From a candidate division WWE3 bacterium (GTDB lineage Bacteria > Patescibacteriota > 4484-211 > GCA-002791395), in NCBI GenBank assembly GCA_013335095.1, contig JAAXWF010000003.1:69960-133959 (forward strand): a DNA stretch of 64,000 bases, in the 5' to 3' direction. Of the stretch, positions 5,740 through 49,548 are shown one piece after another; within the stretch, counting starts at the first letter, position 1, and every line of letters starts with the position of its first letter. Made by a program: the position numbers and the translations under genes. The notes beneath the pieces are model-generated. The model saw nothing but the letters and a program-made list of their open reading frames with translations. It was not told the origin of the DNA and ran no database searches.

Positions 5740-5802
5740 ATGCTGCTCCTTTCGTAAAGCTGAAATAAGCTTAGGGGCGTAGTGTGCCCCTCTTCCATAA
5801 AA

Positions 5803-6078: not shown

Positions 6079-6133
6079 TTAGGACGTCAAGCTTTGCGTA
6101 CAGTGCAGGGCGGTGCAACCCTGCCAGGTTAGT

Positions 6134-6553
6134 TTACCACCAGATAGGCTCTTCCCACCAGCAATTGCTCCCCTTCGGGAGCGGTAGCGGGTGACCTTCC
6201 CACCAGCTGGGGCACGGAACGTCATTTGTCCACCACTCTCGGGCCCAGTTTCGGTGACCGCAGTAGATCCAGGTCCGTGTCACTTCGAAGTAGAGGTTGC
6301 TGTTGGCAGCCACGTAGTGACCAGTCCAATGGACTTGCGTTCGTTCCGCAGTTGGGCACTGGGCGTACTTCACCATCTCGTCGCTGGACGAATCCGGCAG
6401 GTCGATGGCAGTACGGCTGATCTGGGTGCTCTTGGCGATCTCGCTATTTGCCGCAGCGGCCTTTTGTGGCGTCGCCAGGCTAATGAGCGTCAGACCGAAG
6501 AGCAAGACGAACAGGGTGGACAGCCTCTTCACGAGGCGCTTGTTGCGCAACAT
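6134..6553 (-). CDS. small secreted protein, 4 Cys, Trp-rich C-terminus (paralog family member 2)
   Basis: SD aaggag 6 nt before the ATG. Signal peptide LSTLFVLLFGLTLISLATPQKAAAA. Shares Y..CP.A..TQV.WTG...CGH...CP...NCW...W with 5308..5739. Confidence 0.6.
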   Translation of the reverse strand: MLRNKRLVKRLSTLFVLLFGLTLISLATPQKAAAANSEIAKSTQISRTAIDLPDSSSDEMVKYAQCPTAERTQVHWTGHYVAANSNLYFEVTRTWIYCGHRNWAREWWTNDVPCPSWWEGHPLPLPKGSNCWWEEPIWW

Positions 6554-6603
6554 TTTGCGCTCCTTCTTAGGTGATTTGGGGCGCTAGAGCCCCGACTTTT
6601 CCT

Positions 6604-6879
6604 ATCCCGTCCGCTGACTAGCACCATCATCAGGGGGCGGGGTAAAGGTGTTTTGGTTTTCAAAACAACTTGATCCCACCTCCTAACAAAGGGCTAGAAG
6701 CAAGGTAATTCACCAAACTGTCAATGTACAGAATATGAGAATTACTCACATTCATATAATAATGATAGTACTATGGGTTAGGAAAGCAAATGTTTGAGTA
6801 TGAAATTTGAACAAAGTGAGAAGAAAAATAGGGCCGGATTTTGTGGTTAGACCACAAAATCCGGCCAGTGCCGACGACG
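6604..6879. repeat. ~276-bp noncoding direct repeat, copy 2
   Basis: See 5803..6078. Confidence 0.8.
6823..6866 (-). terminator. rho-independent terminator of gene 6898..7251 (cassette terminator, copy 3)
   Basis: Perfect stem ggccggattttgtggt / accacaaaatccggcc plus U-run. Confidence 0.6.
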
Positions 6880-6897
6880 GTTAGGCCGTCTGGCCTT

Positions 6898-7251
6898 TTA
6901 CTCGAACCGGTAATACCAGTTATAGTAGATCCCGTCTTGGTAGAGGGATCCTGGGTACTGGTTCCCGGCCAGGTCGAACGTCGGGGGGGTAACCCCGTAG
7001 ACGGGGCCGCTGTGGGCCTTGTGGGGGCCCATCAGCGGGACGGTGATCATAACGCTCGAGCAGTCCGAGCGGATGATTGTACCGATTACGCCACCACTGT
7101 AGAGGTTGATCACGATCTGACAGACCTTTGCCGCCGGGCTGGCGGCGGTGGTCGAGGCCTCGACGTGGGGCGGGTTAACCGCCGTGAAGCCGAGGGACGC
7201 GAGCAGGGCCATGATAATGAGCCAGTGGCTCCAGTGCAGGCGCGGCAACAT
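6898..7251 (-). CDS. small secreted protein (signal peptide, 2 Cys), high GC3
   Basis: SD aaaggagcggcatATG. A cccccatttggggg hairpin sits just upstream of the SD. Hydrophobic N-terminus WLIIMALLASLGFTA. Confidence 0.5.
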   Translation of the reverse strand: MLPRLHWSHWLIIMALLASLGFTAVNPPHVEASTTAASPAAKVCQIVINLYSGGVIGTIIRSDCSSVMITVPLMGPHKAHSGPVYGVTPPTFDLAGNQYPGSLYQDGIYYNWYYRFE

Positions 7252-7491
7252 ATGCCGCTCCTTTCTCCCCCAAATGGGGGTGGTAGGAAGATCCTCCGTG
7301 ACCGGTGTCAGGAGGCATTACTGCTTATTATCCTAATAGTCAGAAATGCCCCCTGAAGAGGTCTTGGATATGTGCCTGGTATGTAAACGTTCGATAGAGG
7401 CATGTAGAACATGCCTATTTCTAGTATAGACCCACTGAGCCTATAGTAAAGTTGATGGGAGATTTAGTTCATTCTTTGTTACAATAGCCAT

Positions 7492-14037: not shown

Positions 14038-15882
14038 ATGTTTCGAATATATGCTGAAAACAAATGGCGAATAGTATTAGTGCTTGGCGTTATTATAACC
14101 ATGCAACTCTGCTTGTATGTGCTGTTTATAAAGCCAATCCGCGATATTGCATATACTGCCGGGGAATTATATGGCGAAGTATTAGCTTTTCGTTCCACTA
14201 TTTCTTCTAATGATCTCTCGAGCGCCGAAACTCATATGAGTTCAATTAAGCTACGGTTAGAGGATCTTCGTGTGCGCCTGAATAAAATTAGGTATGTCCG
14301 TCATTTCCCTTATTTAAGTGGATATTACGAAGATTCTCAGAACCTTATTCAGGCAGGGATCATTTTTAGCAATTCAGCCGAAGACTTTTTAGTCGATTTT
14401 TTGCCGTTTGCCCCGGTCGTTGGTATCGGTTCTGGTTCGGAAACTGGTACTAGTGATCAAAAGTTGCAACAGCTGGTGACGCTCGCCCCTCAATTGCTTC
14501 CGACTATTGATCGGAGCATTGATGATCTAGAAAAAGCCTTGCCATATCTATTAAATTTGCATTGGGAGCTATATCCAAACACATCAGAGTATCCGATTCG
14601 GGACACACTTCATAAAGTTGTAGATGTTTCTACCGTCGCTCAATCGTATTTATCTGAGGCAAGGACATTTCTGAAAGTCTTTCCCTCTATGTTCGGTGAG
14701 CCAAGTACCAAAAAATACTTGGTTCTGTTCCAAAACGATAAGGAAATCCGTCCAACAGGAGGGTTCATTACTTCTTATACCACGTTAACCATTGATAGCG
14801 GGAAGATTACGATCGAAGATGCAAAAAATATATATGAAGTCTCTAAGAGCGAAGGTTTTTTACCGGCACCTGATCCGATTAAGCAATACTTAAAAGTTAC
14901 CGCATGGCACATGCGAGATACAAACTTTTCACCAGATTTTAAAACCTCAATGGATACGTTTGATAGTTATTGGCGACAACTTGGCCTGACTAAGATTGAC
15001 GGCATCATAACGCTAGATACCCAATTTGTCGCTGGCTTATTGAAACAACTTGGACCAATCGAGATTGCCGACTATGATAATGATTTTTCTGCATATCCAA
15101 ATGTACCGGCAGAATGCAAGCAAGGTGGAAGTACTTTTACCTCGGATAATGTCGTGTGTCGGTTAGAGTACTATGCCCAGCGCTTAACCAACGAGCAAAC
15201 AACACGAAAAGCTGTTATCGGAGATTTGATGGAAAAGATGTTTGATCAATTGATGACCGCTCCTTCAAATAAATGGTATCCGTTAATTTCTGAAGTTCTA
15301 ACGGAGCTTAGTCAAAAACACATGCTCACGTACTTTAAAGATCAAGACGTTCAAGATCTTGGTGAACGACTTAACTGGACTGGTCGTATCCAAGATACTT
15401 CGGGTGACTATCTCCATATTAATGATGCCAATCTTGCTGGTCTAAAATCGGATATGTATCTAAAGCGTTCGGTGGATCAACGATTAGATATTGCTGCTGA
15501 TGGAAGTATTACAAAAACCGTTGCGTTAACCTACGAAAATACTGGTGCGTTTGACGGATGGCTCAATGCCACAGCTCGTAACTACGTTCGAGTGTACGTG
15601 CCAAAGGGATCAAAACTTATTGACGTCAGTGGCGGGGAGGCTAAAACGACGACTCACGATGATTTAGGTAAAACAGTTTTTGATAACTTTATTACGGTAA
15701 AGCCAAAGTCATCTACTACGATAACTTTTACCTATCAGATCCCCATGAAGTATAGTGATGATATGGACATCTTAATCCAAAAACAACCAGGTATTGATCG
15801 AGCTTATCATTCTTTGGATGTAAATGGTCAGAAACAACAGTTTGAATTACTTACTGATTTGCGTTTAAACATAAAAAAGTGA
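14038..15882 (+). CDS. large N-terminally membrane-anchored hypothetical protein (DUF4012-like, envelope-associated)
   Basis: Single N-terminal TM helix, then a long soluble domain. Sits next to the sugar transferase. Confidence 0.35.
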   Translation: MFRIYAENKWRIVLVLGVIITMQLCLYVLFIKPIRDIAYTAGELYGEVLAFRSTISSNDLSSAETHMSSIKLRLEDLRVRLNKIRYVRHFPYLSGYYEDSQNLIQAGIIFSNSAEDFLVDFLPFAPVVGIGSGSETGTSDQKLQQLVTLAPQLLPTIDRSIDDLEKALPYLLNLHWELYPNTSEYPIRDTLHKVVDVSTVAQSYLSEARTFLKVFPSMFGEPSTKKYLVLFQNDKEIRPTGGFITSYTTLTIDSGKITIEDAKNIYEVSKSEGFLPAPDPIKQYLKVTAWHMRDTNFSPDFKTSMDTFDSYWRQLGLTKIDGIITLDTQFVAGLLKQLGPIEIADYDNDFSAYPNVPAECKQGGSTFTSDNVVCRLEYYAQRLTNEQTTRKAVIGDLMEKMFDQLMTAPSNKWYPLISEVLTELSQKHMLTYFKDQDVQDLGERLNWTGRIQDTSGDYLHINDANLAGLKSDMYLKRSVDQRLDIAADGSITKTVALTYENTGAFDGWLNATARNYVRVYVPKGSKLIDVSGGEAKTTTHDDLGKTVFDNFITVKPKSSTTITFTYQIPMKYSDDMDILIQKQPGIDRAYHSLDVNGQKQQFELLTDLRLNIKK

Positions 15883-15908
15883 GGTCCGGATGAACCTCAC
15901 TTCCGTTT
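15874..15908. terminator. bidirectional rho-independent terminator between convergent genes
   Basis: gtgaggt-ccggatga-acctcac hairpin flanked by an A-run on one side and a T-run on the other. Confidence 0.55.
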
Positions 15909-15915
15909 AGGCGAT

Positions 15916-16248
15916 CTACGCAGCGTATACATCTTTGTATAACTGCGCAGCTTCAGTTGCGAGCTTTCGACAGCCCGTGACAGCAAGCATCATTGCTTCC
16001 ATATCACGGACAGCCTCCTCAACACACTGCTTTTTGGCCCATTCCTTTCTGTAATAGTTTTTGAGTACCCAAACCGTCGCGTCATGGAACAGGATGAATA
16101 GTTGTGCTGGATTTTCGATCCATTTTCCAGCGTTCTCCATCATCCTTGTCCAAACGATGTCGACCATCACCCCATTGCTTGCTTCTGCGAGCAGGCGACG
16201 AATAGTCGCTCCATCCTCCGGGAGTTGTATCCGGTTGATCTTGGCCAT
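15916..16248 (-). CDS. hypothetical protein
   Basis: ORF of 110 aa with terminator downstream. No recognisable motif. Confidence 0.35.
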   Translation of the reverse strand: MAKINRIQLPEDGATIRRLLAEASNGVMVDIVWTRMMENAGKWIENPAQLFILFHDATVWVLKNYYRKEWAKKQCVEEAVRDMEAMMLAVTGCRKLATEAAQLYKDVYAA

Positions 16249-16357
16249 ATGGCCTCCTGATTATGCCGGTTTGGCCTATAATAATATTATACCTTATTTT
16301 GATCGCTGTTCAATGGTTTCTTGTGCTGTACTAGTCAGACTGAGTACACTTGTTAGT

Positions 16358-16951
16358 ATGATTACGCAAAATGAACGCGGATGGGTAATGAGCCGCTATC
16401 CCTATGGAGAAGGAAGCAGCATGCTGCATGTGTTTACCCGTCAAAGCGGTGTTGTGAGCGTTGTGGCAAAGTCGGTCCGAAAACCATCTTCGCGGCGGGG
16501 TGGGCATGTCGATCTGTTTAATGAAATAGAATGCTCGATTCGGCCATTCGGCGAGGTCTTTGTTTTATCTGAGGTGACTGTGGTGAAAGCATTTGAGAGT
16601 TTAAAACAAGATTTACATAAATTATCGTATCTGTATTACTTTGCCGAGCTTATCGAACTTTTTATTCAACAGGAGTCTGGGCATCATGTATTATATGACA
16701 AGCTGATTTCGGGAATTGAATTTATTGAGAATCACTCGACAAACCACACTCGAAACCTCGATGAAGTCGCCCGGAGATTTGAGATCTACCTGTTAAGATC
16801 TTTGGGTTTTTGGGCTGATGAAGTTCAGGGGAATGACTATCCTACAAACCCTTCTGAACAACAAAAGTATAATCACCAATTAATACGAGAGGTTGTACAT
16901 CGAAACCTTAAGACGCCATCATTTATTGATTTAAATAAAAATAAAAAGTAA
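16358..16951 (+). CDS. recO: DNA repair protein RecO (short form, no zinc-finger C-terminus)
   Basis: N-terminal OB-fold region ERGWVMSRYPYGEGSSMLHVFTRQSGVVSVVAKSVRKPSSRR matches the RecO N-terminus. The ORF-track start at 16061 is antisense-overlapped upstream extension. Confidence 0.55.
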   Translation: MITQNERGWVMSRYPYGEGSSMLHVFTRQSGVVSVVAKSVRKPSSRRGGHVDLFNEIECSIRPFGEVFVLSEVTVVKAFESLKQDLHKLSYLYYFAELIELFIQQESGHHVLYDKLISGIEFIENHSTNHTRNLDEVARRFEIYLLRSLGFWADEVQGNDYPTNPSEQQKYNHQLIREVVHRNLKTPSFIDLNKNKK

Positions 16952-16966
16952 ATGATTATGTAACCG

Positions 16967-18334
16967 TTAATTTAACTTCTCCTGAAGATATGATTTAAGT
17001 TCGGAGATTGCTACTCGTTCCTGATTTGTTGTGTCGCGATCGCGTACCGTAATCGTATCGTTCTCGAGCGTATCAAAATCAATCGTAATGCACCATGGTG
17101 TTCCGATCTCATCTTGGGCGTAATAGCGTTTTCCAATATTGCCACGCTCATCCCATGCTACCGCCATATCTGAACCAATCATTGCATAGACCTCTTTTGC
17201 CTTCGAGACTAATTCGGGTTTATTTTTGAGGAGTGGAAATACGGCCGCTTGATACGGTGCTAGCGTTGGTTTTATTGATAGCCAGACTCGTTGATCATCT
17301 TCTTGGTACGCTGCACAAAGAATCATTAACGCGGTACGGTTCACCCCAAATGTCGGTTCGATAACATGAGGGATGAGTCGGGTGTTTTGCTGTTGGTCAA
17401 AATAATCTAACTGTGTGCCGGATTTTTCTGAATGATTTCTAAGGTCATAATCGGTACGATAGGCGAGCCCATATAATTCTTTGAAGCCTCCAAATGGATA
17501 ATTATATTCAACATCTTCAGTCCTCGTCGAATAAAATGACAATTCGTCATCGGTATGACGCCTCCATCGTAAATCATTTTCAGGAATACCAAGTCCTGTT
17601 ACCCATGTCCACATATCTTTCTTCCATGATTCGTACTGAGCTTCCCACTCGTCGGGACGAATAAAATACTCTATCTCCATCTGTTCAAATTCGAGAGTTC
17701 TAAAAATAAAATTCCCTTTAGTGATTTCATTACGAAACGCTTTACCGATTTGAGCGATACCAAATGGCAATTTGGGGCTCATTGAATCCATGATTGCCTT
17801 GAAGTTTACAAACATACCTTGTGCAGTTTCGCCTCGTAAATAGGCGAGCGATTCACTTTCGGGTACTATTCCAATATGCGTGGTAAATAGTAGATTAAAT
17901 TGACGGGCTGGGGTCCAATCAAATTCCTGACATGTCGGACAAGTTAAATGATTTTGAGTAATTAGCTGATCCAATTCAGTTGTTGGCAATCCCTCAACTT
18001 TGATGTCTTTTAATGCACCTTCAATTAGGTGATCGGCTCGAGTTCGGGTATGGCACTTTTTGCACTCAACCATCGCGTCTGCAAAGTTATCTGCATGGCC
18101 TGAAGCCCTCCATACGGCTGGATTCATAATAATAGGTGTTTCTATTCCATAAATATCAGGACGCTGACCTACAAAAAATTGCCACCATTGGTTTCGTATA
18201 TTTCGTAAAAGTGCCGTACCTAAAGGACCATATGTCCATGTATTTGCGAGTCCGCCGTAAATTTCTGAATCCTGGAAAATGAATCCTCGTCTTTTGGCTA
18301 GCGCAACGATCTTATCCATCTTATTTTCAATCAT
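16967..18334 (-). CDS. glyQS: glycine--tRNA ligase (dimeric alpha2 type)
   Basis: LAKRRGFIFQDSEIYGGLANTWTYGPLG... is the typical class II GlyRS N-terminus. True start may be the MDKIV ATG at 18319. Confidence 0.85.
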   Translation of the reverse strand: MIENKMDKIVALAKRRGFIFQDSEIYGGLANTWTYGPLGTALLRNIRNQWWQFFVGQRPDIYGIETPIIMNPAVWRASGHADNFADAMVECKKCHTRTRADHLIEGALKDIKVEGLPTTELDQLITQNHLTCPTCQEFDWTPARQFNLLFTTHIGIVPESESLAYLRGETAQGMFVNFKAIMDSMSPKLPFGIAQIGKAFRNEITKGNFIFRTLEFEQMEIEYFIRPDEWEAQYESWKKDMWTWVTGLGIPENDLRWRRHTDDELSFYSTRTEDVEYNYPFGGFKELYGLAYRTDYDLRNHSEKSGTQLDYFDQQQNTRLIPHVIEPTFGVNRTALMILCAAYQEDDQRVWLSIKPTLAPYQAAVFPLLKNKPELVSKAKEVYAMIGSDMAVAWDERGNIGKRYYAQDEIGTPWCITIDFDTLENDTITVRDRDTTNQERVAISELKSYLQEKLN

Positions 18335-18517
18335 TACGTTACTATAGCATTATCCTGCAAAAAAATAACCTGTGTATTCTCTTTCTATTGTTTAATATTT
18401 AAGATCCTTGAGAACTTTTACTCGTAGTTTTATTCCCCCGATCTTGATCTATCGCCTTATTAATATGATGTGTACAAAGTTGATGTTATGAGCCTCTATG
18501 GCGGTACGTATTGATCG

Positions 18518-18547
18518 TTGACACCTGTCTACTATTGGCGGTATATT
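18518..18547 (+). promoter_or_regulatory. sigma70-like promoter of the dcw operon (TTGACA-N18-TATATT)
   Basis: Perfect -35 hexamer 18518-18523 and -10 at 18542-18547, about 65 nt upstream of mraZ. Confidence 0.5.
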
Positions 18548-18548
18548 T

Positions 18549-18575
18549 TGGTGAGAATTGGTGATTTATGGTGAT
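18549..18575 (+). promoter_or_regulatory. putative MraZ operator: three direct repeats TGGTGA(G/T) with exact 10-bp phasing
   Basis: Repeats at 18549, 18559, 18569 immediately downstream of the -10. MraZ proteins autoregulate via phased direct repeats in this position. Confidence 0.45.
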
Positions 18576-22543: not shown

Positions 22544-23887
22544 ATGGGCATTCTATTTGATGGAAAAAAACGACCACTTAGGGGAATCTATCACGTATCT
22601 CCGGCGCAAGAGTTGTCGAAAAAAATGATGCTAACCAGCCTTCTTTCAGGCAAGGAAAGTATCGTACATAATATCGTTAGCTCTACGAGCTTAAATCAAG
22701 TGATTGAAGTGGTGGAGTTTCTTGGGGCTCAAACTCACTGGGTAAATAATACCTCCATTGCAATAAAGTCTGATACGGTTGGTTCAATCGCACTACCCAA
22801 AGGGATGCTGAATAATCTCCCATTATATTGGTTTGCATTTGCCGTTGTATTAGCCAAGAACGGTAAGGCGGCAATTCCTTTTGAAAACTTTATTGATACT
22901 CATGGTGAGCTGTCCCAGCGAATTTTTACCTTGTTCAATGACCTCGGAGTTGAATTGATTCAGGAGAAAGGTTATTTGATTGGAACCCTGCCAAAAGACT
23001 GGTATGAAGATCGTCCTGTTGTAATGAACTTACCGTACTCATATAAAGAAGAGACTGAAGTTGCGATTTTATTGTCGGTGCTTAGACATAATGTTCATAC
23101 AACGATTCGGAACGTATCAAATGAATTAACGATTGATGTGTTGATTCGGTTTTTGTCTATCGGGGGAGCGGTTATTAGTCGGCCTGACCCTCACACTATA
23201 GTCATTGAGGGGTCAGAACAGCTTGATGCAATGGAGGATTCGGTTCAATCTGATATTACCGAGGCGGGACTTATTGCTTTATGTACTGCTGCTACTGGGG
23301 GAGAGGTTGAGATTCGCAACGTTGAAAAAGAGGGATTACTGCCGCTCATGACTAAGCTAGATCAGATTGGCATTGGATATCGATTTGATGGGGATATTCT
23401 TCGCGTCTGGGCAGAGCAAAATGATCCATTTAATCCTATCGAAATCCGCACTGGTTTATACCCCAGGTTCTCAACCCGTTGGTTAGCACCAATCAGCATA
23501 CTGTTATCTCAATGCAATGGAGAGTCTCGAATTATTGAAACGGTCGACAGTCGTGGTCTTACATTTCTAGATATATTACAGAAAGCTGGTGCCGTATTCT
23601 CGGTGTTCGTGCCTGAAGATTTCGATTATTTGTCTGATTTTGCTTATGATAGTTCAATTTTAAATGGTGAGTACCCTTCATTTGCTGCTAAGATTTTTGG
23701 TCCTACCAAACTAACCTCTCCTTCAGTCATTGATCCTGAAAATACTGCACAGTCTTTGGTCGGATTATTCCTAGGGTTAATGGCCGAGACTCCGGTATCT
23801 ATGTCTAATGCGGAGATTTTAACTGAGGAGTATCCACGAATGATTAGCCAACTTATTGATCTTGGCGCAGGAATAAAATACAGTTGA
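22544..23887 (+). CDS. EPSP-synthase-fold enolpyruvyl-transferase homolog (divergent MurA-like)
   Basis: N-terminal region resembles MurA (…LTSLLSGKESIVHNIVSSTSLNQVIEVVEFLGAQ…). Length matches the fold. Assignment by eye only. Confidence 0.4.
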   Translation: MGILFDGKKRPLRGIYHVSPAQELSKKMMLTSLLSGKESIVHNIVSSTSLNQVIEVVEFLGAQTHWVNNTSIAIKSDTVGSIALPKGMLNNLPLYWFAFAVVLAKNGKAAIPFENFIDTHGELSQRIFTLFNDLGVELIQEKGYLIGTLPKDWYEDRPVVMNLPYSYKEETEVAILLSVLRHNVHTTIRNVSNELTIDVLIRFLSIGGAVISRPDPHTIVIEGSEQLDAMEDSVQSDITEAGLIALCTAATGGEVEIRNVEKEGLLPLMTKLDQIGIGYRFDGDILRVWAEQNDPFNPIEIRTGLYPRFSTRWLAPISILLSQCNGESRIIETVDSRGLTFLDILQKAGAVFSVFVPEDFDYLSDFAYDSSILNGEYPSFAAKIFGPTKLTSPSVIDPENTAQSLVGLFLGLMAETPVSMSNAEILTEEYPRMISQLIDLGAGIKYS

Positions 23888-23891
23888 CACT

Positions 23892-24911
23892 ATGACCTTT
23901 CAAACTATTTCTGATAAGGATATTTGGGATAATTATTTTGACTCTTATAGACCATCTTCAATGTTGCAGTCATGGGCATGGGGTGAATTTCATCAGAATC
24001 AGCACCACCGTGTTTTTCGTATTGGTGAGTTCGATCAGGATTCATTAATTGGTGCGGCTATTATTGTTGAGGTGAGAGCAAAGCGTGGATCATATATTAC
24101 TTGTCAGGGGGGGCCAATGATCGATTGGGATGACCTTGGCCAACGGAATCGATGGATGAATTATCTTGCTGAATTGGCCAAAACTCAACGTGTCGATTTC
24201 GTTCGATTGCAAGTACCGCTAGAACACAATCAAGAAAACATACAGTCCTTTTTTCGCCATGGATATCGTCTCGCACCGATGTACATGCCTGCAGAACACA
24301 CGTTATTACTTGATTTAACAAAATCTGAAGATGAGTTATTAGCAGGGATGCGAAAACAGACCAGGTATTATATTCGTCGAGCCGAAAAGGATGGAGTCGT
24401 CGTACATGTTTCCCATGAGACTAAGGATTTAAAGATTCTTTATGAACTTTATCAAGAAACAGTTAAGCGTCAGCATTTTATTCCTTATTCTGAAAAGTAT
24501 TTTAATGATGAAGTCTCGGCTTTTGCTCAGGATAATCAGGTCGAAGTATTTTTAGGCTATGATCGGGATATTGTGCGATCCGCGGCTATGATTATTTACG
24601 CAGGCGATACCGCGTACTATCATCACGGCGCATCCAAACGGATGGAGCATGAAGAAAGCTTTGCGAGTTATCTTGTTCAATGGCAAGCAATTCGGAGGGC
24701 AAAAGAAAAAGGAATGAAGTTATACGATTTTTGGGGTGTGGCTCCTACCGATGATGGAAATCATGCAAAGTCAGGTCTGACTACATTTAAGCGTGGATTT
24801 GGCGGTACGAGGGTACATAGATTACATACAATTGATCTGCCTATTTCTTGGAAATATTGGCCAATGTGGTTATACAGTAAGGTCGAACGGTATAAACGAG
24901 GTTGGGTTTAG
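23892..24911 (+). CDS. FemAB-family peptidoglycan interpeptide-bridge aminoacyltransferase
   Basis: Resembles the FemAB family (PF02388) along its length (WAWGEF…ITCQGGPMIDW…YYHHGAS…). Confidence 0.55.
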   Translation: MTFQTISDKDIWDNYFDSYRPSSMLQSWAWGEFHQNQHHRVFRIGEFDQDSLIGAAIIVEVRAKRGSYITCQGGPMIDWDDLGQRNRWMNYLAELAKTQRVDFVRLQVPLEHNQENIQSFFRHGYRLAPMYMPAEHTLLLDLTKSEDELLAGMRKQTRYYIRRAEKDGVVVHVSHETKDLKILYELYQETVKRQHFIPYSEKYFNDEVSAFAQDNQVEVFLGYDRDIVRSAAMIIYAGDTAYYHHGASKRMEHEESFASYLVQWQAIRRAKEKGMKLYDFWGVAPTDDGNHAKSGLTTFKRGFGGTRVHRLHTIDLPISWKYWPMWLYSKVERYKRGWV

Positions 24912-25084
24912 GTTTTACATATTATTGACACATAGTTTGTGATTTGTTAAATAGGAAGTATGCAAAATGCATTCAATGTAAAAACGAAATCTATTATTGC
25001 TCTCCACATTATGTGTGGTTGCCTACTCGTAGGCAACTAGTACATAGGGAGGGACCAATAATGGTCACCGTCACAAGACGTAAA

Positions 25085-25107
25085 CCCTCCCACCGGGAGG
25101 GTTTTTT
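25085..25107 (+). terminator. intrinsic terminator / attenuator hairpin in the leader upstream of 25244
   Basis: ccctccc-acc-gggaggg followed by TTTTTT. An upstream agggaggg (25045-25052) could pair alternatively with ccctccc. Confidence 0.45.
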
Positions 25108-25243
25108 CGTTTTGGCACATTAATAAAATTTAATAGTTTGTGGGAATAACTGCATTTAAAATGAGTGCATTTATTTCCCCAAACTATTTCAATGGTGCTG
25201 GGGGCACAGGTTTTGCCCGTGCTAATGAAGCAGGAGGTCTCTA

Positions 25244-27076
25244 ATGGATCCGGTTCACATCGAACGTTTGTTCGAACCTTACCGACTTCAGGGAGGATTG
25301 ATCGATCGGTCTCGACTCACGTGCTTGACGTATGTAATTACCACAAGCTCGTTAAGCCTTTCCGGTTTTGATCAAATGCTTCTAATTGCTGCAACTGGAG
25401 CTACCTCAATCGTAAAGTATCCATCTGATTTGGCATACTTTATTCGCCGAACCAACGAAGCGTTAGCAAATAGTACGCTTCATGTACCTAGGGAGATTGC
25501 GATCGACGGGATCACCTCGATCGAGCAACTCTATGCACTGGTCGGGGATGATTGGCGGGTTGAGTTACTCAATGACAAGCGTGCTGCGGAAGCGCGACTA
25601 ATGCGAAAGCATGTTGTCATACATGAGGCAACTGCTTTAGGTTCTTTCTATGAGGTCCAGACCAACAAAACCGCAATACTGCGGGTCTTGGTGTATGACC
25701 AAGACATGACCTCATTGATGCAAACAGCCCACGCGATTTCTCGTGCGCTTGGGATTGGTGTTAATGAATTAGTTTTCATCTCGTCATCGGGTGAAGTTTT
25801 ATACCCGCCTGACCGGCCTGCGGTGATGACGCGGAGTGTCCATGAGGGAATAAAGCACATTCGCCTTATTCCTCGGACTCTGCCACTCTCTGAGGATGTG
25901 CTTCAAGTGTGTGCTCGACGGGCAGTATCTGGAAAATATAGTCAGATCAAGCCTCTTTCTGTAGGTGAGAAGAGTGGTCGGATTCCGTCGACTCTTCCGG
26001 AGGCTGTTATCGCTCGAACTATCCAGGATGTTACGAATCGGGGTTTAAACCGGGTCGTTTCATCGCTTACTGGAATTACCGATACGCCGCTTATATATGA
26101 GGCGACCGATGTCGGTGGCAATTGCATGGAATTATTCCAGCTTATGGTCGCATGTCTGCGAACTGGGTTGCCTGGCGTATTTAGTATCGAGCATCGTGCC
26201 CACAACATCGGCGACTACTTTGAGCGTGTGCTCGGTCCATCTCTTGCTCTTATCGGTAATATGACGACGTTGTTGCCCGAGCTACATCAACAACGTGCCG
26301 ATCATATGACCGGAGCGGATTTATTTGCGACACTCAACGTACAACTGACCCCACCGCTCGCTGCTCTATCTCATTTGCCGGTCGGTAATTTTTACCGAGC
26401 GGTGCATGAATACCTTGTTCGGCGGGTATGCCAGATCCTTCGGCTCGCCGTTCGAGTTGCTGTTGTCGATGCGGAAACACTTTTTAGTGAAGCTACGCCG
26501 CTACTAACCTTGGGGGAGGCGGTAGATTTGATTCGAAGCGAGCTCGATGAACGAGTTATTGCCAATGTCTATGAGCATGGCCGACAACGTCAGATTTATA
26601 CATCTGATATAGATCGATCCAGGCAGTGGGAGCGCGTGTGTACCTTTTTGCAGGGCACTCAGGCGTGGCCTGGTGGGGCGTTAACGTATCTACTTCTTGC
26701 CGCATTATCGCACCATGGGCCGACCATCTTAAATTTGAAAGATAGTCGGCTTGGAGATGTGGCTAGAGCGTCGTTGACTTCCATTCATCTTATGGGCGGA
26801 GTTAATCATGCTCAGATAGCGGTCTCGGGAGTAACCAGGTGCTATCCGATTGGACGAGAAGCTCATACCGGGGATAATGTCGATCCGGTTATTTTTGCCA
26901 TGATGCTTGATCAGTATCCGACTGAAATGGCGGAATTGATCAGATCGATGATGGCTAGCTGGATTTTCCCGGTAACTCCGGAAAATGCTGGTCTCGTTCA
27001 GGTCTTTTGGTTAGGGAGCAGAGGGCGATGGTTCTCCACCCGATACCTTGATTCGGCTGGTGGTCAGCGTCCATGA
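25244..27076 (+). CDS. hypothetical protein (610 aa), moderately elevated GC
   Basis: Strong SD aggaggt before the ATG. No motif recognised. Confidence 0.45.
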   Translation: MDPVHIERLFEPYRLQGGLIDRSRLTCLTYVITTSSLSLSGFDQMLLIAATGATSIVKYPSDLAYFIRRTNEALANSTLHVPREIAIDGITSIEQLYALVGDDWRVELLNDKRAAEARLMRKHVVIHEATALGSFYEVQTNKTAILRVLVYDQDMTSLMQTAHAISRALGIGVNELVFISSSGEVLYPPDRPAVMTRSVHEGIKHIRLIPRTLPLSEDVLQVCARRAVSGKYSQIKPLSVGEKSGRIPSTLPEAVIARTIQDVTNRGLNRVVSSLTGITDTPLIYEATDVGGNCMELFQLMVACLRTGLPGVFSIEHRAHNIGDYFERVLGPSLALIGNMTTLLPELHQQRADHMTGADLFATLNVQLTPPLAALSHLPVGNFYRAVHEYLVRRVCQILRLAVRVAVVDAETLFSEATPLLTLGEAVDLIRSELDERVIANVYEHGRQRQIYTSDIDRSRQWERVCTFLQGTQAWPGGALTYLLLAALSHHGPTILNLKDSRLGDVARASLTSIHLMGGVNHAQIAVSGVTRCYPIGREAHTGDNVDPVIFAMMLDQYPTEMAELIRSMMASWIFPVTPENAGLVQVFWLGSRGRWFSTRYLDSAGGQRP

Positions 27077-27125
27077 AATCGTGCAGGTTGCTCTTTATGA
27101 GCTGCCTGCATATGTACAAATTCTT

Positions 27126-27863
27126 ATGAATACTAAAGAACAAAAACAAATAAATACAATGGGTCACAAGCAGCATAAAAGTGTTTTAGTTGTGACGGCC
27201 CATGCTGATGATCATATTGCGAGCGCTGGAACAATCTTCAAACTAAAGGATCAGGGCTACGAAGTGTATGAACTTATTATGACAGATTCGAGTGAAGGAC
27301 GTGATTATCGTCACTTAAATGGATCATATGATGTTAGTCAAATGCGCGAAGATGAGTTTAGTGATGCTTCGTTGTTTCTTGGTACAAAAGAAATATACCG
27401 ATTAGGTCAGGAAGATCTGAATTTGCGATATTCAAAACAACTCGTATTCCAAACCGCTCATATAATTCGTCAGATCCGTCCGACAGTTGGTATCATCATG
27501 AATAATTTTGATTGGCACTCGGATCATATTGCTTCATATCGTATCGCTTCAACGGCGTTTAAAATCGCCGCAACTGGTATTAGGCCGGAATTGGGGGATC
27601 ATCATCGTACTCCAATGGTTTTGGCTGTCGAGGGAATGATCCCAATTAAACCTTCAATACTTGTTGATATCACAAATTACTATGATAAAAAAATAGAGTT
27701 ATTTAAAATTTATGAGTCACAAGCTTCATCAAAATCGTTAGGATTTCATGAGGGTTTAGCAAAAGTTCGTGGCTATCACGTTCGTCGCAATGGTAGCTTG
27801 CTTGCAGAAGCATTCTCTACCGATCCAACATCTCCAATTATTCTTTTCGATGAAGAACTATGA
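27126..27863 (+). CDS. PIG-L / LmbE-family N-acetylglucosaminyl deacetylase
   Basis: VLVVTAHADDH is the LmbE AHPDDE-type zinc motif. Confidence 0.65.
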   Translation: MNTKEQKQINTMGHKQHKSVLVVTAHADDHIASAGTIFKLKDQGYEVYELIMTDSSEGRDYRHLNGSYDVSQMREDEFSDASLFLGTKEIYRLGQEDLNLRYSKQLVFQTAHIIRQIRPTVGIIMNNFDWHSDHIASYRIASTAFKIAATGIRPELGDHHRTPMVLAVEGMIPIKPSILVDITNYYDKKIELFKIYESQASSKSLGFHEGLAKVRGYHVRRNGSLLAEAFSTDPTSPIILFDEEL

Positions 27864-28750
27864 ACACTGTTTCTCCAACCATCAACACTAATATTCCCGT
27901 ATTAGGGGATCCTACGAATCGTAAAATTGTTAACCTAACTGATGGTGATTCAAACCAAGTCTACCGAGTTAATGGACGATACATATATAAAGAATACTTT
28001 TCTTCGGAACAACTTAATTACGAGACGACGGGGTGCTTAGTGTTTAATCTCCTTTCATCGTATGGTATTCCAATGCTTCTTGATAAAGGGCCAAACTATT
28101 TGGTAACGGAGTATATCGATTCTACATCATGCTTGATGCTGTACCGCCAGGGACAACTAAGTAAGACTGAAATTGGTCGGAAGGCAAGTACTTTTTTATC
28201 CGAAGTCTATTGGAATTACCGTTACTTTAATCGCAGTAAGGTTGCGCTTTTTCAAAATATTGCCTGGAAAGATCGATTTATTGCAATCTTGAATTACACT
28301 CAAGCTCACTATCAAGATTGGAATATTCATCTAGATGCGGGGGATCTTCGTCAGATTGGAGACATACTGACTCGGCTGAGTTGTATATACATACCACCAC
28401 AATCGCTAACTTTTCTGCATCGGGATTTGCACCTTGATAATGTCCTCATACAAGAAAAAAAGTCCGGACGTGATTCTAACTTTTTCATTGATTTTGAGCA
28501 CTGCATGGAGGGACCAATTGAGTTTGAGTTGCAGAATTCAATCTTCTGGGATGATGAGTGGTCATTGCCGGTCAACTTTGTCCGCGACGAATTGATAAAA
28601 GTACATGATATCCCATATTCTATTGAATTAGAAAAACAGCTCCTCGGTCTGTATTATGTAGATCAACTTAATTTAGCTTATTCAAAACTTGACTATACAA
28701 AGATGAACATTCTTGCGGATCGATTTCGATCTTTTTATGCACCGAGCTAG
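27860..28750 (+). CDS. aminoglycoside-phosphotransferase / choline-kinase-like small-molecule kinase
   Basis: Catalytic loop HRDLHLDNVL and IDFEH (DFG-like). ATGA overlap with the deacetylase. Confidence 0.55.
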   Translation: MNTVSPTINTNIPVLGDPTNRKIVNLTDGDSNQVYRVNGRYIYKEYFSSEQLNYETTGCLVFNLLSSYGIPMLLDKGPNYLVTEYIDSTSCLMLYRQGQLSKTEIGRKASTFLSEVYWNYRYFNRSKVALFQNIAWKDRFIAILNYTQAHYQDWNIHLDAGDLRQIGDILTRLSCIYIPPQSLTFLHRDLHLDNVLIQEKKSGRDSNFFIDFEHCMEGPIEFELQNSIFWDDEWSLPVNFVRDELIKVHDIPYSIELEKQLLGLYYVDQLNLAYSKLDYTKMNILADRFRSFYAPS

Positions 28751-28826
28751 TTGATTATTGCAATTTATGTTGCAATTATATCCTATAATGTAAGAGTCTC
28801 TAAGTTCAGGTAGGAAAGGAGGAGCG

Positions 28827-29453
28827 ATGCCGTTAGTGTATCGCGAGGAATGCTGGACCCTTAAGGGTGATACAGGTACGGCTAATACGCCGGACCTGTT
28901 TATCACTAGAAGGATTCCAGTCGGATCAGCCGAGGTGAGCCTTTCTCGGCTCGTCGTTCAACGAATCGAGCGGGAGGTGACAATCGTCGTTGTCCACTTT
29001 CGCCTTGATTACGCTGATGAAAGCCCGGTTCTGATCCAACAGGAGCCAGTCAGGTTTTTTTGCGACTGGCTGCAGGTTCAATGGACCCCGATCTTGGGGC
29101 GGATCAACACGGGATACTATGACCTCAGTGGTCCTAGTACACAGAAGCTAAACAGCTACACACCCAAACGTGCCGCTGATGTCAACCAGGTAACCAAACT
29201 GGATGACGTGCTTCTGTTTGGCGATCCGCTGCAGGTGGCCGTCCGCGCTCAGGGGTTTGGTGTTCCGGTGAAGGAATACCTGCGCCGGCTGCGTAACGAA
29301 CCCCGTCGACTGCTGGTGGCCGCGATGACCAGCAAGATCGACACGCTCCTGCAGACATTGGTGGTACCATGGCGGTTACCATCGACGTGGATTGGAACAG
29401 ACGAGCTTGATCCGTTCGAAGGATCGCTTAAAGCTCGTTTTCGCTGGCGGTAG
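28827..29453 (+). CDS. hypothetical protein, high GC (~55%)
   Basis: SD aaaggagg before the ATG. Strong terminator downstream. Confidence 0.4.
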   Translation: MPLVYREECWTLKGDTGTANTPDLFITRRIPVGSAEVSLSRLVVQRIEREVTIVVVHFRLDYADESPVLIQQEPVRFFCDWLQVQWTPILGRINTGYYDLSGPSTQKLNSYTPKRAADVNQVTKLDDVLLFGDPLQVAVRAQGFGVPVKEYLRRLRNEPRRLLVAAMTSKIDTLLQTLVVPWRLPSTWIGTDELDPFEGSLKARFRWR

Positions 29454-29462
29454 GTAAGTCCT

Positions 29463-29497
29463 GGGACTGACTGTGAATAACAGTCGGTCCCTTTTTA
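29463..29497 (+). terminator. rho-independent terminator
   Basis: 11-bp stem gggactgactg/cagtcggtccc followed by TTTTTA. Confidence 0.6.
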
Positions 29498-29537: not shown

Positions 29538-30569
29538 ATGGACAAGTTTTTTGGGATCTTATTACTTTCTTCATCATTTACCGCATTACTCATGGTTCCC
29601 TTTATCAATTTATTGTATTTTCTAAAGTTTCGTACGCCTCAGGTTGAAAGCGTTGATTCACTTGGGCGCAAAACCCCGTTTAATAAATTAATGGGAAACA
29701 AGGTCGGGACGCCGACCGGTGGGGGAGTCCTTTTGATAACTTCTACATTTTTATTCACCTTAATCTTTTATGGATTAACCCAATTTTCACTAAACTGGAC
29801 GGCATGGATTCTGTTTGCCACATTGTTTTTATTTGGAATGCTTGGGCTCTACGACGACTGGTTAAAGTTTTTTGGTGTTAAAGAAAAGAAAGCATGGTTA
29901 TTCGATTTTAAATATAAGTTATTTGTACAGATTTTATTTGGAATAATCGTTTCTTCACTTTTGTATTACAAAATGGGATTACATTTAATTTCAATACCTG
30001 TAATTACCGCACTGACGAGTTTTCGTTTAGAGCTCGGGTGGTGGTTTATTCCAATTGCCGCATTCATAATTATTTCTACGAGCAATGCGTTTAATATTGC
30101 CGACGGACTAGACGGCTTATCAGCTGGCCTTTTAGTTATTGCTCTCAGTGCTTTTTGGGCTCTCACTGGTTATTCTTCGTATGGTGGGGATGTCAGTTTA
30201 TTTATTGCAACTATAATTGGAGCGTTATTAGTATATCTTTATTTCAATATTTTTCCTGCGCGTATTTTTTATGGAGATACAGCCGCGTTAGCATTTGGAG
30301 CGGTGCTCGCGGTAATTGCATTGATACTCGATCAAGCGCTAGTCTTACCAATTATCGGAGGTATGTTCGTTGTCGAAGGTGCGTCGAGCTTAATTCAGAT
30401 GTTATCGTTTAAGTTTCGAAACGGTAAACGTGTCTTTAAGATCGCCCCATTGCATCATCATTTTCAAGTAATCGGATGGGAAGAGACAAAAGTGACGATG
30501 AGGTTCTGGTTATTCGGTATTGTATTGGCATTCGCCGGACTCTTTTTAGCTACGTTTGGACTTGGTTAA
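29538..30569 (+). CDS. mraY: phospho-N-acetylmuramoyl-pentapeptide transferase
   Basis: MraY signatures incl. NKVGTPTGGG and C-terminal HHHFQ. Confidence 0.85.
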   Translation: MDKFFGILLLSSSFTALLMVPFINLLYFLKFRTPQVESVDSLGRKTPFNKLMGNKVGTPTGGGVLLITSTFLFTLIFYGLTQFSLNWTAWILFATLFLFGMLGLYDDWLKFFGVKEKKAWLFDFKYKLFVQILFGIIVSSLLYYKMGLHLISIPVITALTSFRLELGWWFIPIAAFIIISTSNAFNIADGLDGLSAGLLVIALSAFWALTGYSSYGGDVSLFIATIIGALLVYLYFNIFPARIFYGDTAALAFGAVLAVIALILDQALVLPIIGGMFVVEGASSLIQMLSFKFRNGKRVFKIAPLHHHFQVIGWEETKVTMRFWLFGIVLAFAGLFLATFGLG

Positions 30570-47286: not shown

Positions 47287-48210
47287 ATGCGGTATTTACC
47301 GTACTCACAGCGGAGGCCGGATCGGCAGTATAGTCAGCTTCTGGTCGAGATCCTTAATTCAGGTCTTTGGTCGCCCGCACAACAAGGTGGCCGGACAAGA
47401 AGTCGGTTGGGCTGCCAGATGCGGTTTCCATTATCGAACGGATTTCCGATTGTGACCGTCAGGGATCTGGCTACTCCATTTAAGAGTGGCCGCTCAATCC
47501 TTGGGCAGGCGCTGGGCGAACTGTGCGGGTTTCTTAATGGTGCTCGTACCCAAGAAGAGCTGGAGCAATTCGGCTGCTATTGGTGGGCACCATGGGTAAC
47601 CGAAGCAAAATGTGCCAAGCGTGGACTTGAGGAAGGGGATCTTGGACCAGGCTCATATGGGCCAGTCTGGACGGCATTTCCAACGCCTGATGGTAGCACC
47701 TTTAATCAGTTTGATGCGATGGTTCAGCAGATGATTGAACTCCCGCATCTTAAAACTCACCAGGTTGTACCGTGGTTTCCGCCGTACAATTTTCGTGGTG
47801 ACGGTGTTTTACAGCAGGTCGTTGTTGTGCCGTGTCATGGATGGGTGAATGTCGCTGTATATCCAGAACTCGGTGAATTCGACCTAGTCCACGTACAGCG
47901 GAGTGCTGATGTACCGGTTGGGCTGGTGGCGAATATGATTCAGTACGCTGCCCTCATGCTTATGCTTGAGGTGCTTACGGGATATCATCCACGTGAGCTG
48001 GTGTATATGATCGTGAACGCCCATGTGTTCGAATCGCAGCTGGTGGCTGTCGATAAGATCCTTGGGGTGGAGCCTGTCGAATTTCCTACAGTGACCATCG
48101 CCGAGCATGCCCAAGCACATTCAAGTGTTCGGGATTTTCGTGCCGGTGATTTTATTGTTTCCGATTATCATCCGGTTCTTCCGGTGATGCGGATTCCAAC
48201 ACCGGTATAA
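47287..48210 (+). CDS. thyA: thymidylate synthase ThyA-family (divergent; see findings)
   Basis: PCH active-site motif (VVVPCHGWV). GPVW…PTPDG, QRSADV…N…Y and C-terminal H..FE blocks alignable to ThyA. SD aaggaggg. Confidence 0.7.
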   Translation: MRYLPYSQRRPDRQYSQLLVEILNSGLWSPAQQGGRTRSRLGCQMRFPLSNGFPIVTVRDLATPFKSGRSILGQALGELCGFLNGARTQEELEQFGCYWWAPWVTEAKCAKRGLEEGDLGPGSYGPVWTAFPTPDGSTFNQFDAMVQQMIELPHLKTHQVVPWFPPYNFRGDGVLQQVVVVPCHGWVNVAVYPELGEFDLVHVQRSADVPVGLVANMIQYAALMLMLEVLTGYHPRELVYMIVNAHVFESQLVAVDKILGVEPVEFPTVTIAEHAQAHSSVRDFRAGDFIVSDYHPVLPVMRIPTPV

Positions 48211-48219
48211 GGAGGCGCT

Positions 48220-49177: not shown

Positions 49178-49191
49178 TGTAGGTAACGTAT

Positions 49192-49226
49192 ATGCCTCGG
49201 TCGTAATTGATCGAGGCATTTTTATT
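49192..49226 (+). terminator. rho-independent terminator of the thyA-folA-HIT operon
   Basis: atgcctcg…cgaggcat stem followed by TTTTATT. Confidence 0.6.
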
Positions 49227-49231
49227 ATAGG

Positions 49232-49260: not shown

Positions 49261-49295
49261 ATGTAACATTCTACGTGTGAGGCGCACCGGAAAGA

Positions 49296-49513: not shown

Positions 49514-49548
49514 AGTTTAGGATCTCGGCATCCGTTCATGATGGATGA

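Follow-up and report, generated by a model that had tools for sequence, protein, structure and literature searches.

The division and cell wall (dcw) gene cluster of a candidate division WWE3 bacterium carries, between its two blocks, a conserved three-gene operon that recurs in bacteria of the Candidate Phyla Radiation (CPR, or Patescibacteria) and stands behind a structured leader RNA. The operon lies in a 64-kb window, the whole stretch of DNA analysed here, from a 260-kb contig (JAAXWF010000003.1) of a WWE3 metagenome-assembled genome (MAG); Logan run SRR11449211 holds the same DNA. Coordinates are those of the window, and features lie on its forward (+) strand unless stated otherwise. The 4.3-kb segment between the dcw blocks is made up of two units. 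Unit 1 (24925-28750) consists of a promoter, a structured leader of ~150 nucleotides (nt) and the genes for a 610-residue protein encoded by an open reading frame (ORF) that we call ORF610 (NCBI HGA91_04920), a PIG-L/LmbE-family zinc deacetylase and an APH-family, protein-kinase-like kinase. Unit 2 (28827-29491) is an orphan gene, ORF208, with its own terminator, and has no relation to the conserved module. Within the trio, deacetylase and kinase are ordinary members of known families and ORF610 belongs to an undescribed one; Pfam, NCBIfam, PADLOC, PHROGs and Rfam contain neither the trio as such nor the leader, and a full-text literature search found no description of the trio. We consider it very probable that the three proteins form a functional unit acting on an acetamido sugar.

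A recurrent three-gene operon

ORF610 is the first gene of the operon (25244-27076, 610 amino acids (aa)) and has a strong ribosome-binding site (RBS), AGGAGG. A word-indexed search of 5.8 billion proteins returned ORF610 itself and one 619-aa homolog (33% identity, 99% coverage), and when 1.84 billion cluster representatives were searched exhaustively with a HMMER profile, the family grew to 24 proteins. Six of these belong to a class of ~610 aa that is 33-45% identical, one of them a 467-aa sequence without the N-terminal part; the remaining ~18, of 300-530 aa, align to the C-terminal ~330 residues only. Because homologs are 33-45% identical over the full length, ORF610 is a real protein; a non-coding RNA or intron behind its high GC content was rejected, there being no Rfam match and no tRNA. 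No Pfam domain was found in any of the 24 proteins, ORF610 itself matched nothing in Pfam, NCBIfam, PADLOC or PHROGs, and the family profile had no sequence match in the PDB. Profile searches with this protein had been suggested in an initial annotation of the same DNA, and what they uncovered is a rare family. Among 185,579 GTDB species representatives there is a single family locus, in a Saccharibacteria MAG (L011), and JGI metagenome contigs scanned with ORF610 patterns gave no confirmed match.

At seven of nine independent ORF610-family loci (the window, L002, L006, L008/L009, L011, L010 and L095) the family gene lies beside a module-type PIG-L gene, a kinase gene or both. The gene order is ORF619, APH, PIG-L in L002, which is outside a dcw context, and ORF614, APH, PIG-L in L011, near genes for an SLT transglycosylase and a GmrSD restriction protein. 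In L008/L009 the C-terminus of a MurE-like gene is followed by ORF611, PIG-L and APH, and in L006 a FemAB gene is followed by ORF611 and PIG-L, after which the contig ends. More distant family members, here called X, show the same association: L095 has X and PIG-L, and in L010 a 470-aa X lies in the order GT2, GT-C, GT2, X, APH-like, PIG-L, GT4 (GT, glycosyltransferase), then YfhO genes. The order of the partners thus varies, X-PIGL-APH or X-APH-PIGL, while the set persists. Within the module the deacetylases are 67-71% identical, the kinases 45-46% and the ORF610 proteins 33-45%. As a negative control, none of 80 loci with generic PIG-L genes (26-32% identity) contained an ORF610-family or module-kinase gene, and a scan of the JGI metagenome collection with the PIG-L alignment found only generic relatives at 26-32%. 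These data demonstrate that ORF610, PIG-L and the kinase are a conserved operon in CPR bacteria, and the near-70% identity of PIG-L between WWE3 and Saccharibacteria suggests that the whole cassette moves between CPR lineages.

The MAG that holds the L008 trio (GCA_964502675.1, family protein P0007) also encodes a 490-aa distant paralog (P0010; L096:1870-3342). The paralog's gene has a leader of the same promoter-terminator layout, and its neighbours encode a cysteine-desulfurase-like aminotransferase, a peptide deformylase and a Mur ligase.

Deacetylase and kinase

The PIG-L gene (27126-27863; PF02585, 68.6 bits against a cutoff of 28.2) sits in a reading frame that is open from 27048. Its start is likely the ATG at 27126, since homologs are 228-237 aa long, and there is then no overlap with ORF610. 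Every module copy retains the metal motifs A25-H-A-D-D29 and H131-S-D-H134 without change; the copies in L002, L008 and L011 gave the range of identities to the window protein quoted above. Its nearest solved structures are Pyrococcus diacetylchitobiose deacetylase (E 6e-16), B. cereus BC1534, TT1542 and BshB, and its best NCBIfam model is BshB1 (TIGR04001), at 74.7 bits under a cutoff of 182.5. The PIG-L of L010 likewise scores below the cutoffs for BshB1 (99.1 against 182.5) and MshB (TIGR03445; 34 against 224), and the GT4 glycosyltransferase at that locus has BshA and MshA as its best NCBIfam matches, both weak and below cutoff.

The kinase gene (27860-28750; Pfam APH PF01636, 35.2 bits against 23.2) begins within the deacetylase stop codon, the two overlapping as ATGA at 27860-27863. 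The motifs K44, E55, HRDLHLDN and IDFEH are intact in the window kinase and conserved in the full-length kinase copies. Beyond the APH family we found little affinity: Choline_kinase scored 18.5 against a cutoff of 29, no NCBIfam model matched, and a profile search of the PDB gave a best E of ~0.05, to unrelated protein kinases, so that no characterised or resistance APH is a near relative. A defence-system identity for the block was rejected on PADLOC and PHROGs, in which one function-unannotated PHROG matched PIG-L and all PADLOC matches were at noise level (E >= 0.0025). The initial annotation had recognised the coupled ATGA, treated deacetylase and kinase as a functional pair unrelated to the canonical dcw genes, and read them as a possible small-molecule modification pathway, directed at a substrate containing N-acetylglucosamine (GlcNAc) or at antibiotic inactivation. 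The overlap is real, the pairing and the lack of relation to dcw functions are borne out, and a GlcNAc-directed pathway is a sensible reading of the two enzymes.

Predicted structure of ORF610

We modelled ORF610 with AlphaFold2 on the 24-sequence alignment and searched the models against the PDB with Foldseek. The full-length model had a predicted local distance difference test score (pLDDT) of 90.3 and a predicted TM-score (pTM) of 0.76, and residues 262-610 reached a pLDDT of 92.9 and a pTM of 0.92. For this C-terminal model the 11 best PDB matches were all catalytic domains of class I aminoacyl-tRNA synthetases (aaRS), headed by Campylobacter ArgRS (3fnr, E 3.4e-4, probability 0.98) and class I LysRS (1irx, E 8.8e-4) and including ArgRS from E. 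coli and other sources, MetRS and GluRS; next came pantothenate synthetase, GlnRS and the cyclodipeptide synthase AlbC, the first and last of these being acyl-transfer enzymes of the same superfamily. The full-length model had the same top matches, its N-terminal half weakly resembling peptidyl-tRNA-hydrolase and PAC2, and in the BFVD viral library the best match was again an ArgRS. A class I aaRS-like (HUP/Rossmann) domain is thus the best, though weak, match for the predicted fold of residues ~262-610. Residues 1-260 are an extra alpha/beta region that only the ~610-aa subfamily possesses.

Across the family, at ~20% identity, P332, S333, G478, K499, G504 and R532 are invariant, and Y285, N293, E296, A319, Y384, W475, G492, D500 and D547 are among the near-invariant residues; D500 is invariant in a 23-sequence alignment from which the weakest match was omitted. 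The conserved loop K499-D-S-(R/x)-x-G504 follows strand 494-499 in the model, and we take it to occupy the KMSKS position of class I aaRS, an equivalence by position only.

A leader RNA with a predicted terminator-antiterminator switch

The initial annotation had missed the promoter, leader and terminator upstream of ORF610. By direct reading, a promoter-like element at 24925-24953 comprises TTGACA, a 17-nt spacer and an extended -10, TG-T-TAAATA, although it failed the strict -10 rule of the promoter tool. The leader itself (24988-25112) has a folding z-score of -6.7 to -7.3. In its long hairpin CUCUCC (25000-25005) pairs with GGGAGGG (25047-25053) around an apical stem at 25017-25036, and a small hairpin follows; an intrinsic terminator, found by terminator scan 3' of femAB, occupies 25082-25104 plus a T-run. 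GGGAGGG can instead pair with the 5' arm of the terminator, CCCUCCC, to give an antiterminator, and in the minimum-energy fold this upstream element is held by the CUCUCC-type strand of the long hairpin. The predicted arrangement is the classical one of anti-antiterminator, antiterminator and terminator.

The same layout is present at eight of the nine family loci, regardless of which gene lies upstream. A TTGAC(A) box stands at the same relative position, in most cases beside a -10 or extended -10 recognised by eye, a terminator T-run follows 173-247 nt downstream, and after a further ~60-290 nt comes a strong RBS. All eight leaders fold better than shuffled sequences (z -2.8 to -6.7). Moreover, all seven loci with a perfect terminator have, 21-60 nt upstream of it, a 6-8-nt exact complement of the terminator 5' arm, and this complement changes sequence in step with the terminator from locus to locus. 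The upstream element and terminator 5' arm are GGGAGGG and CCCTCCC in the window, GGAGAGGT and ACCTCTCC in L006, AGGAGGG and CCCTCCT in L008, GGGAGGCT and AGCCTCCC in L002, GGAGGTTT and AAACCTCC in L011, GGAGGG and CCCTCC in L095, and GGCGGG and CCCGCC in L096. At five loci the observed match length was reached by at most 29 of 2000 shuffles.

A covariance model, R1, built from the leaders of the window, L006 and L008, found a fourth strong copy (48 bits, E ~6e-10) at L012:14654-14777, in a WWE3-type relative. When the four copies are aligned, 91% of the cells form pairs and both sides have changed at 11 of the 23 pairs, a level of covariation that none of 500 shuffles reached, and slid controls were 46-64% paired; with so small a sample and an alignment fitted to the model, we regard the covariation as supportive rather than conclusive. 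MAFFT/RNAalifold applied to all eight leaders recovered the terminator only, and the three-sequence model was needed to see the rest. Downstream of the L012 leader lie, at 14861-18567, genes for two paralogous proteins of 421 and 442 aa, with one for a class I glutamine amidotransferase between them. Neither the 421-aa nor the 442-aa protein had a Pfam or PDB match, and a search for homology between ORF610 and the 421-aa protein found none. Both L012 proteins carry an E-x-N-x-R-L-T motif that recalls, by eye only, ATP-grasp ligases. Since L012 lacks the trio, the leader regulon extends beyond the ORF610 family. Its presence before a different set of enzymes would fit a metabolite- or state-sensing regulator of ligase-type chemistry.

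As in riboswitches and T-boxes, a promoter is followed by a structured, putative sensor hairpin, then by mutually exclusive antiterminator and terminator, and then by the gene. The predicted fold of ORF610 makes this likeness notable, aaRS genes being what T-boxes typically control. Unlike T-boxes, however, the leader has no Rfam match, is short at ~150 nt, and contains no specifier or T-box sequence that we could recognise; a T-box identity was rejected on the lack of an Rfam signal. Rfam gave nothing at gathering thresholds, and at E <= 10 only chance matches driven by the terminator (Phe_leader, 25.8 against 55). A leader peptide was also rejected: a 20-codon ORF (25062-25124) spans the terminator, and its counterparts elsewhere are absent or 2-4 codons long. 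On sequence grounds we describe the element as a predicted transcription-attenuation switch of a generic kind, with mutually exclusive, covariation-supported pairings. Directly after the terminator lies a conserved box, GCACATTAA (25115-25123), which is the same or nearly identical in L006, L011 and L012. Between terminator and RBS is a second long hairpin (25132-25188) with 23-nt arms that are 87% complementary and no T-run; at most other loci a hairpin of different sequence could be read at the equivalent position.

A proposed pathway for the trio

Our preferred reading, to which we lend slightly less than even weight, is that the trio follows a route resembling mycothiol and bacillithiol synthesis, in which a GlcNAc-type sugar is deacetylated and then N-acylated at the expense of ATP, with one phosphorylation step. 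Competition between the leader terminator and the upstream antiterminator would make transcription into the operon genes conditional. PIG-L would then remove the N-acetyl group from a GlcNAc-type amino sugar, whether free, glycosidically linked or carrier-linked; family membership and intact active-site motifs are established for this enzyme, and from the chemistry of the family the substrate is probably of GlcNAc type. The class I aaRS-like domain of ORF610 would activate a carboxylate with ATP, most simply that of an amino acid, and pass the activated group on to the amine that deacetylation has exposed, the step that MshC performs following MshB and that BshC presumably performs following BshB. 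This putative ligase role is suggested by the similarity in fold, the invariant residues and the linkage of the genes. Finally, the kinase would phosphorylate acceptor or product, mycothiol synthesis being a case in which a phosphorylated acceptor is used. The neighbours of the operon make it most likely that the product is part of the cell envelope or a precursor of it: FemAB genes are neighbours in the window and L006, a MurE-like gene in L008, and L010 is rich in glycosyltransferases.

There is precedent for such chemistry. MshC is a CysRS paralog that acylates glucosamine after deacetylation, and other class I aaRS-like enzymes serve as amide ligases (PMC2922099). The trio shares with these ligases, and with the cyclodipeptide synthases, a predicted HUP/Rossmann domain and small operons with tailoring enzymes, the known systems forming non-ribosomal amide bonds (PMC2922099), and AlbC, like pantothenate synthetase, is among the structural matches of ORF610; unlike them, ORF610 is not detectably related in sequence to those families. 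The survey of these enzymes by Aravind, de Souza and Iyer 2010 (PMC2922099) mentions no LmbE protein or deacetylase, uses 'kinase' only in fold names and does not describe ORF610.

The closest parallels are with MshB/MshC and BshB/BshC, the trio likewise having an LmbE deacetylase tightly linked to a protein of predicted Rossmann-type fold resembling class I aaRS. BshB1 is the best-scoring NCBIfam model for the trio deacetylase, the L010 trio is followed by a GT4 gene with weak similarity to BshA/MshA, and the ORF610 gene lies at the dcw cluster, as does bshC (yllA) in Bacillus subtilis. The differences are several. ORF610 has neither sequence similarity to MshC/BshC nor a HIGH motif, and the scores of its partners and neighbours fall below the cutoffs for BshB, MshB, BshA and MshA; the trio has an extra kinase and ORF610 an extra N-terminal region of ~260 residues; and neither a glycosyltransferase nor an acetyltransferase (MshD) is conserved with it. 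We know of no mycothiol- or bacillithiol-type thiol in CPR bacteria, the hosts of the trio. In the archaeal Dac pathway, too, deacetylation is followed by a later phosphorylation, and the trio PIG-L is nearest to Pyrococcus Dac; there, however, the third enzyme is a glycoside hydrolase (GlmA), and ORF610 has no glycosidase-like fold.

A number of observations weigh against the mycothiol-like route. The aaRS matches of the ORF610 model have TM values of only 0.29-0.36 and a root mean square deviation of ~10 Å, MshC and BshC are not among its top 50 structural matches, and neither sequence nor profile comparison connects ORF610 with any aaRS, MshC or BshC. A profile-profile link to E. coli ArgRS was rejected at an hhalign probability of 0.5%. 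In view of the low TM and the empty profile-profile comparison we treat the aaRS likeness as one of fold, not of membership. The HIGH (HxGH) motif is absent, the equivalent loop being T288-D-V-G-G-N293, with no histidines. Nor does the scheme fit in every part, as a kinase has no necessary role in mycothiol-type synthesis and no glycosyltransferase belongs to the conserved set. The sample is also small, with only ~9 independent loci, mostly on short contigs, and at one of them, that of the distant member in L096, there is no PIG-L or kinase gene nearby.

A bolder extension, which we think unlikely, is that the ORF610 family is a third lineage of aaRS-like ligases after MshC and BshC, and that the trio builds a new glucosamine-amino-acid or glucosamine-acyl conjugate in Patescibacteria under the control of a new riboswitch class. 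Such a conjugate might serve as a cofactor of the mycothiol/bacillithiol type or modify the envelope, and the riboswitch class would also control other unannotated enzymes in related genomes. Were the mycothiol-like logic true, it would mean a new amino-sugar conjugate or envelope modification, and with it little-known redox or cell-wall biochemistry, and a new branch of tRNA-synthetase-like ligases. CPR bacteria represent a large share of bacterial diversity and have tiny genomes with many unannotated genes. Here a hypothetical protein becomes testable, having a defined family, a confident model, invariant residues, two partners of known chemistry and a structured leader that should respond to the signal of the pathway.

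The main rival explanation, which we judge rather unlikely, is salvage by a kinase and a nucleotidyltransferase: PIG-L would prepare a sugar from material scavenged from a host, such as chitobiose or peptidoglycan fragments, the kinase would phosphorylate the amino sugar at C1, and ORF610 would couple sugar phosphate and nucleoside triphosphate into a nucleoside diphosphate sugar for the envelope. Such a scheme explains the kinase better than the mycothiol-like route does, by giving it a natural role, and fits the structural matches worse. The HUP superfamily to which class I aaRS belong does include nucleotidyltransferases, APH-family kinases include anomeric sugar kinases, the nearest solved relatives of PIG-L are chitobiose deacetylases, the cell-wall and glycosyltransferase contexts are compatible, and CPR bacteria rely heavily on salvage. 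Known systems of this kind are AmgK/MurU, which act on N-acetylmuramic acid (MurNAc), and LicA/LicC, which act on choline; like the trio they combine an APH-fold kinase with a putative nucleotide-using enzyme in a cell-envelope context. Yet the top 50 structural matches of ORF610, which lacks the HxGH motif, include no cytidylyl-, adenylyl- or uridylyltransferase, and the sugar-1-phosphate nucleotidyltransferases MurU and GlmU, as well as LicC, have folds different from that of ORF610. Neither does the kinase show detectable affinity to any sugar-kinase family, or measurable affinity to AmgK or LicA, and the trio adds a deacetylase partner that those systems do not have. We regard as improbable that the trio is instead an inactivation or immunity cassette which detoxifies an acetamido-sugar antibiotic or toxin, such as an aminoglycoside or nucleoside, with a leader that switches on with the compound. 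APH and LmbE-type enzymes occur in both aminoglycoside resistance and biosynthesis; the unrelated genomic contexts, the spread over two CPR lineages and the ~70% identity of PIG-L suggest horizontal spread; the L011 copy has the SLT and GmrSD genes nearby; and ORF610 diverges faster than its partners (33-45% against 45-71%), as would a specificity component. Set against this, nothing in PADLOC or PHROGs matches above noise, the phage and plasmid collections searched contain no member of the family, no integrase, flanking repeats or tRNA lie by the block, its position is the same in two diverged WWE3 genomes, and the kinase is not near any resistance APH.

Genomic setting and composition

Pfam and NCBIfam assignments place mraZ, rsmH, ftsL, ftsI, an EPSP-synthase/MurA-like gene and FemAB upstream of the segment, and mraY, ftsW, murG, ftsQ, ftsA and ftsZ downstream. 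The proximal dcw block ends with the FemAB-family gene (23892-24911; Pfam FemAB, 135.8 bits), which is outside the module, and the distal block opens with mraY (29538-30569; Pfam Glycos_transf_4, 96 bits). This flanking order, and four ORFs at 25244-27076, 27048/27126-27863, 27860-28750 and 28827-29453, had been given correctly in the initial annotation, as had the absence of murC, murD, murE, murF and ddl from the cluster: no ORF scanned in this 64-kb part of the 260-kb contig contains a Mur ligase or Ddl domain. Its view that ORF610 is not a Mur ligase holds as well, and we rejected a disguised Mur ligase on the lack of any domain match; Mur_ligase_M and Mur_ligase_C domains, which are readily detected in the true Mur ligases of relatives, are absent from ORF610.

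The segment does separate the two dcw blocks, as had been claimed, although the picture of an insert splitting the cluster is not the best one. Two WWE3-type relatives, L012 and L013, have FemAB proteins 46-48% identical to that of the window and the same GlyRS gene and mraZ-rsmH-ftsL-ftsI-MurA-like start, and the trio is not present between their ftsI and mraY genes. There the order is an alpha/beta-hydrolase, a Mur ligase, a DegT aminotransferase, FemAB and a Mur ligase, followed by an inverted RelA/SpoT gene, a FemAB-like gene and a 695-aa Mur ligase. In L006, by contrast, FemAB, ORF611 and PIG-L follow one another as in the window, at 53% (the nearest homolog of the window FemAB), 45% and ~70% identity, the last being our own count over a partial gene. 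The shared order indicates that the arrangement has been inherited within a lineage, in which the trio has been present long enough for ORF610 to diverge to 45% identity, and together with the differing content of L012 and L013 it shows the slot between ftsI and mraY to be variable. The trio is therefore better described as a replacement in a variable dcw slot that holds Mur ligases in relatives. The initial annotation had named, as an outcome that would overturn its view, relatives with the same gene order and uniform composition; this is borne out in part, since L006 shares the order although composition varies between the genes. No direct or inverted repeats flank the block, there is no tRNA near it and no recombinase (integrase or transposase) among the ORFs, and a mobile-element or genomic-island origin was rejected for want of flanking repeats and of phage or plasmid homologs. 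The variability of the slot matters when the peptidoglycan capability of WWE3 bacteria is inferred from their genomes.

ORF610 (GC 0.499, GC at third codon positions (GC3) 0.465) and ORF208 (GC 0.552, GC3 0.608) are indeed outliers among the dcw genes of the window (GC 0.35-0.43, GC3 about 0.28-0.39), as the initial annotation had it, although high GC is not unique to them within the window. The offset of ORF610 recurs elsewhere. At six of seven comparable loci the ORF610-type gene exceeds the neighbouring PIG-L and/or APH gene in GC content, with values of 0.44-0.55 against 0.38-0.47 for PIG-L and 0.38-0.41 for APH; the exception is L010, in which PIG-L (0.448) lies slightly above X (0.437). 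Hosts of both ~40% GC (window) and ~50% GC (L011, L007) show the offset, over a range of 40-52%, and in GC-rich hosts it is the two small genes, PIG-L and kinase, that are the compositional outliers. A side observation is that in the window, L002, L006, L008, L011 and L095 the ORF610-type genes are 5-15 GC points richer than the deacetylase and kinase genes beside them, at third codon positions too, although the encoded proteins are only 33-45% identical. Because it recurs across loci, the offset is not evidence that ORF610 arrived here separately or recently, and the suggestion that it is a separate foreign gene falls: no other gene accompanies the deacetylase and kinase as constantly as ORF610.

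A recent mosaic insertion, in which unrelated foreign genes without coherent function were brought together and ORF610 and ORF208 came from a GC-rich donor, consequently seems very improbable. It would account for the two compositional outliers, for the lack of any relatives of ORF208 and for the FemAB 46-48% relatives that have no such genes at this position. Yet an ORF610-family gene with one or both module partners recurs at no fewer than seven loci, a trio of unrelated genes is contradicted by L006, L008, L011 and L010, L006 shares the order FemAB, ORF611, PIG-L, the GC offset is reproduced in hosts of 40-52% GC, and flanking repeats are lacking; for ORF208 alone the model may be true. We give equally little credence to the idea that ORF610 replaces the Mur ligases as a non-homologous, ATP-dependent ligase adding amino acids to UDP-MurNAc (UDP, uridine diphosphate). 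ORF610 does lie between FemAB and MraY, in a slot that Mur ligases fill in relatives, no Mur ligase was found in the 64-kb window, and an adenylate-forming ligase fold is putative for ORF610. But a MurE-like gene lies directly upstream of the L008 trio and a second Mur ligase beside L096 in the same MAG, so that the family coexists with Mur ligases; the trio also occurs outside cell-wall contexts (L002, L011), and a single enzyme is an implausible substitute for four specific ligases.

Other features of the window and its relatives

ORF208 (28827-29453, 208 aa) has its own RBS and, upstream, a promoter-like site TTGCAA...TATAAT. It found no homolog but itself among 5.8 billion proteins and none in any fetched locus, and it matched nothing in Pfam, NCBIfam, PADLOC or PHROGs. 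The segment closes with an intrinsic terminator (29463-29491) of a 12-pair stem, with seven GC pairs, and TTTTT; this is the strong terminator noted in the initial annotation.

The MurA-like gene of the cluster (22544-23887) has an EPSP-synthase fold and scores 155 bits against a MurA equivalog cutoff of 392.7, and may not be a canonical MurA. It is kept at the same position in L013, and the L012 counterpart has no Pfam match on record. The unusual genes between ftsI and mraY span L012:4360-11147 and L013:4476-16625 and include three Mur ligases and two FemAB-like genes, a content that suggests non-standard chemistry of the peptidoglycan stem peptide.

A second high-GC patch (47287-50761) consists of genes for thyA, DHFR, a HIT-family protein and dCMP deaminase (GC 0.47-0.54, GC3 0.43-0.56), and compositional heterogeneity is common in this genome, ordinary metabolic genes included. 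Between glycosyltransferase genes lies a 2.8-kb stretch of 53% GC without a long ORF (4697-7490). On its minus strand it encodes three or four small, Cys/Trp-rich and apparently paralogous proteins with signal peptides (5308-5862, 6134-6553, 6898-7251 and 4697-5104), for which there was no Pfam or Rfam match. Further downstream, adjoining a tRNA-Gly gene, a 930-aa protein (58274-61066) with AAA_21/AAA_23 domains, AbiEii-like or SMC-like ATPase in type, is possibly a defence or repair ATPase.

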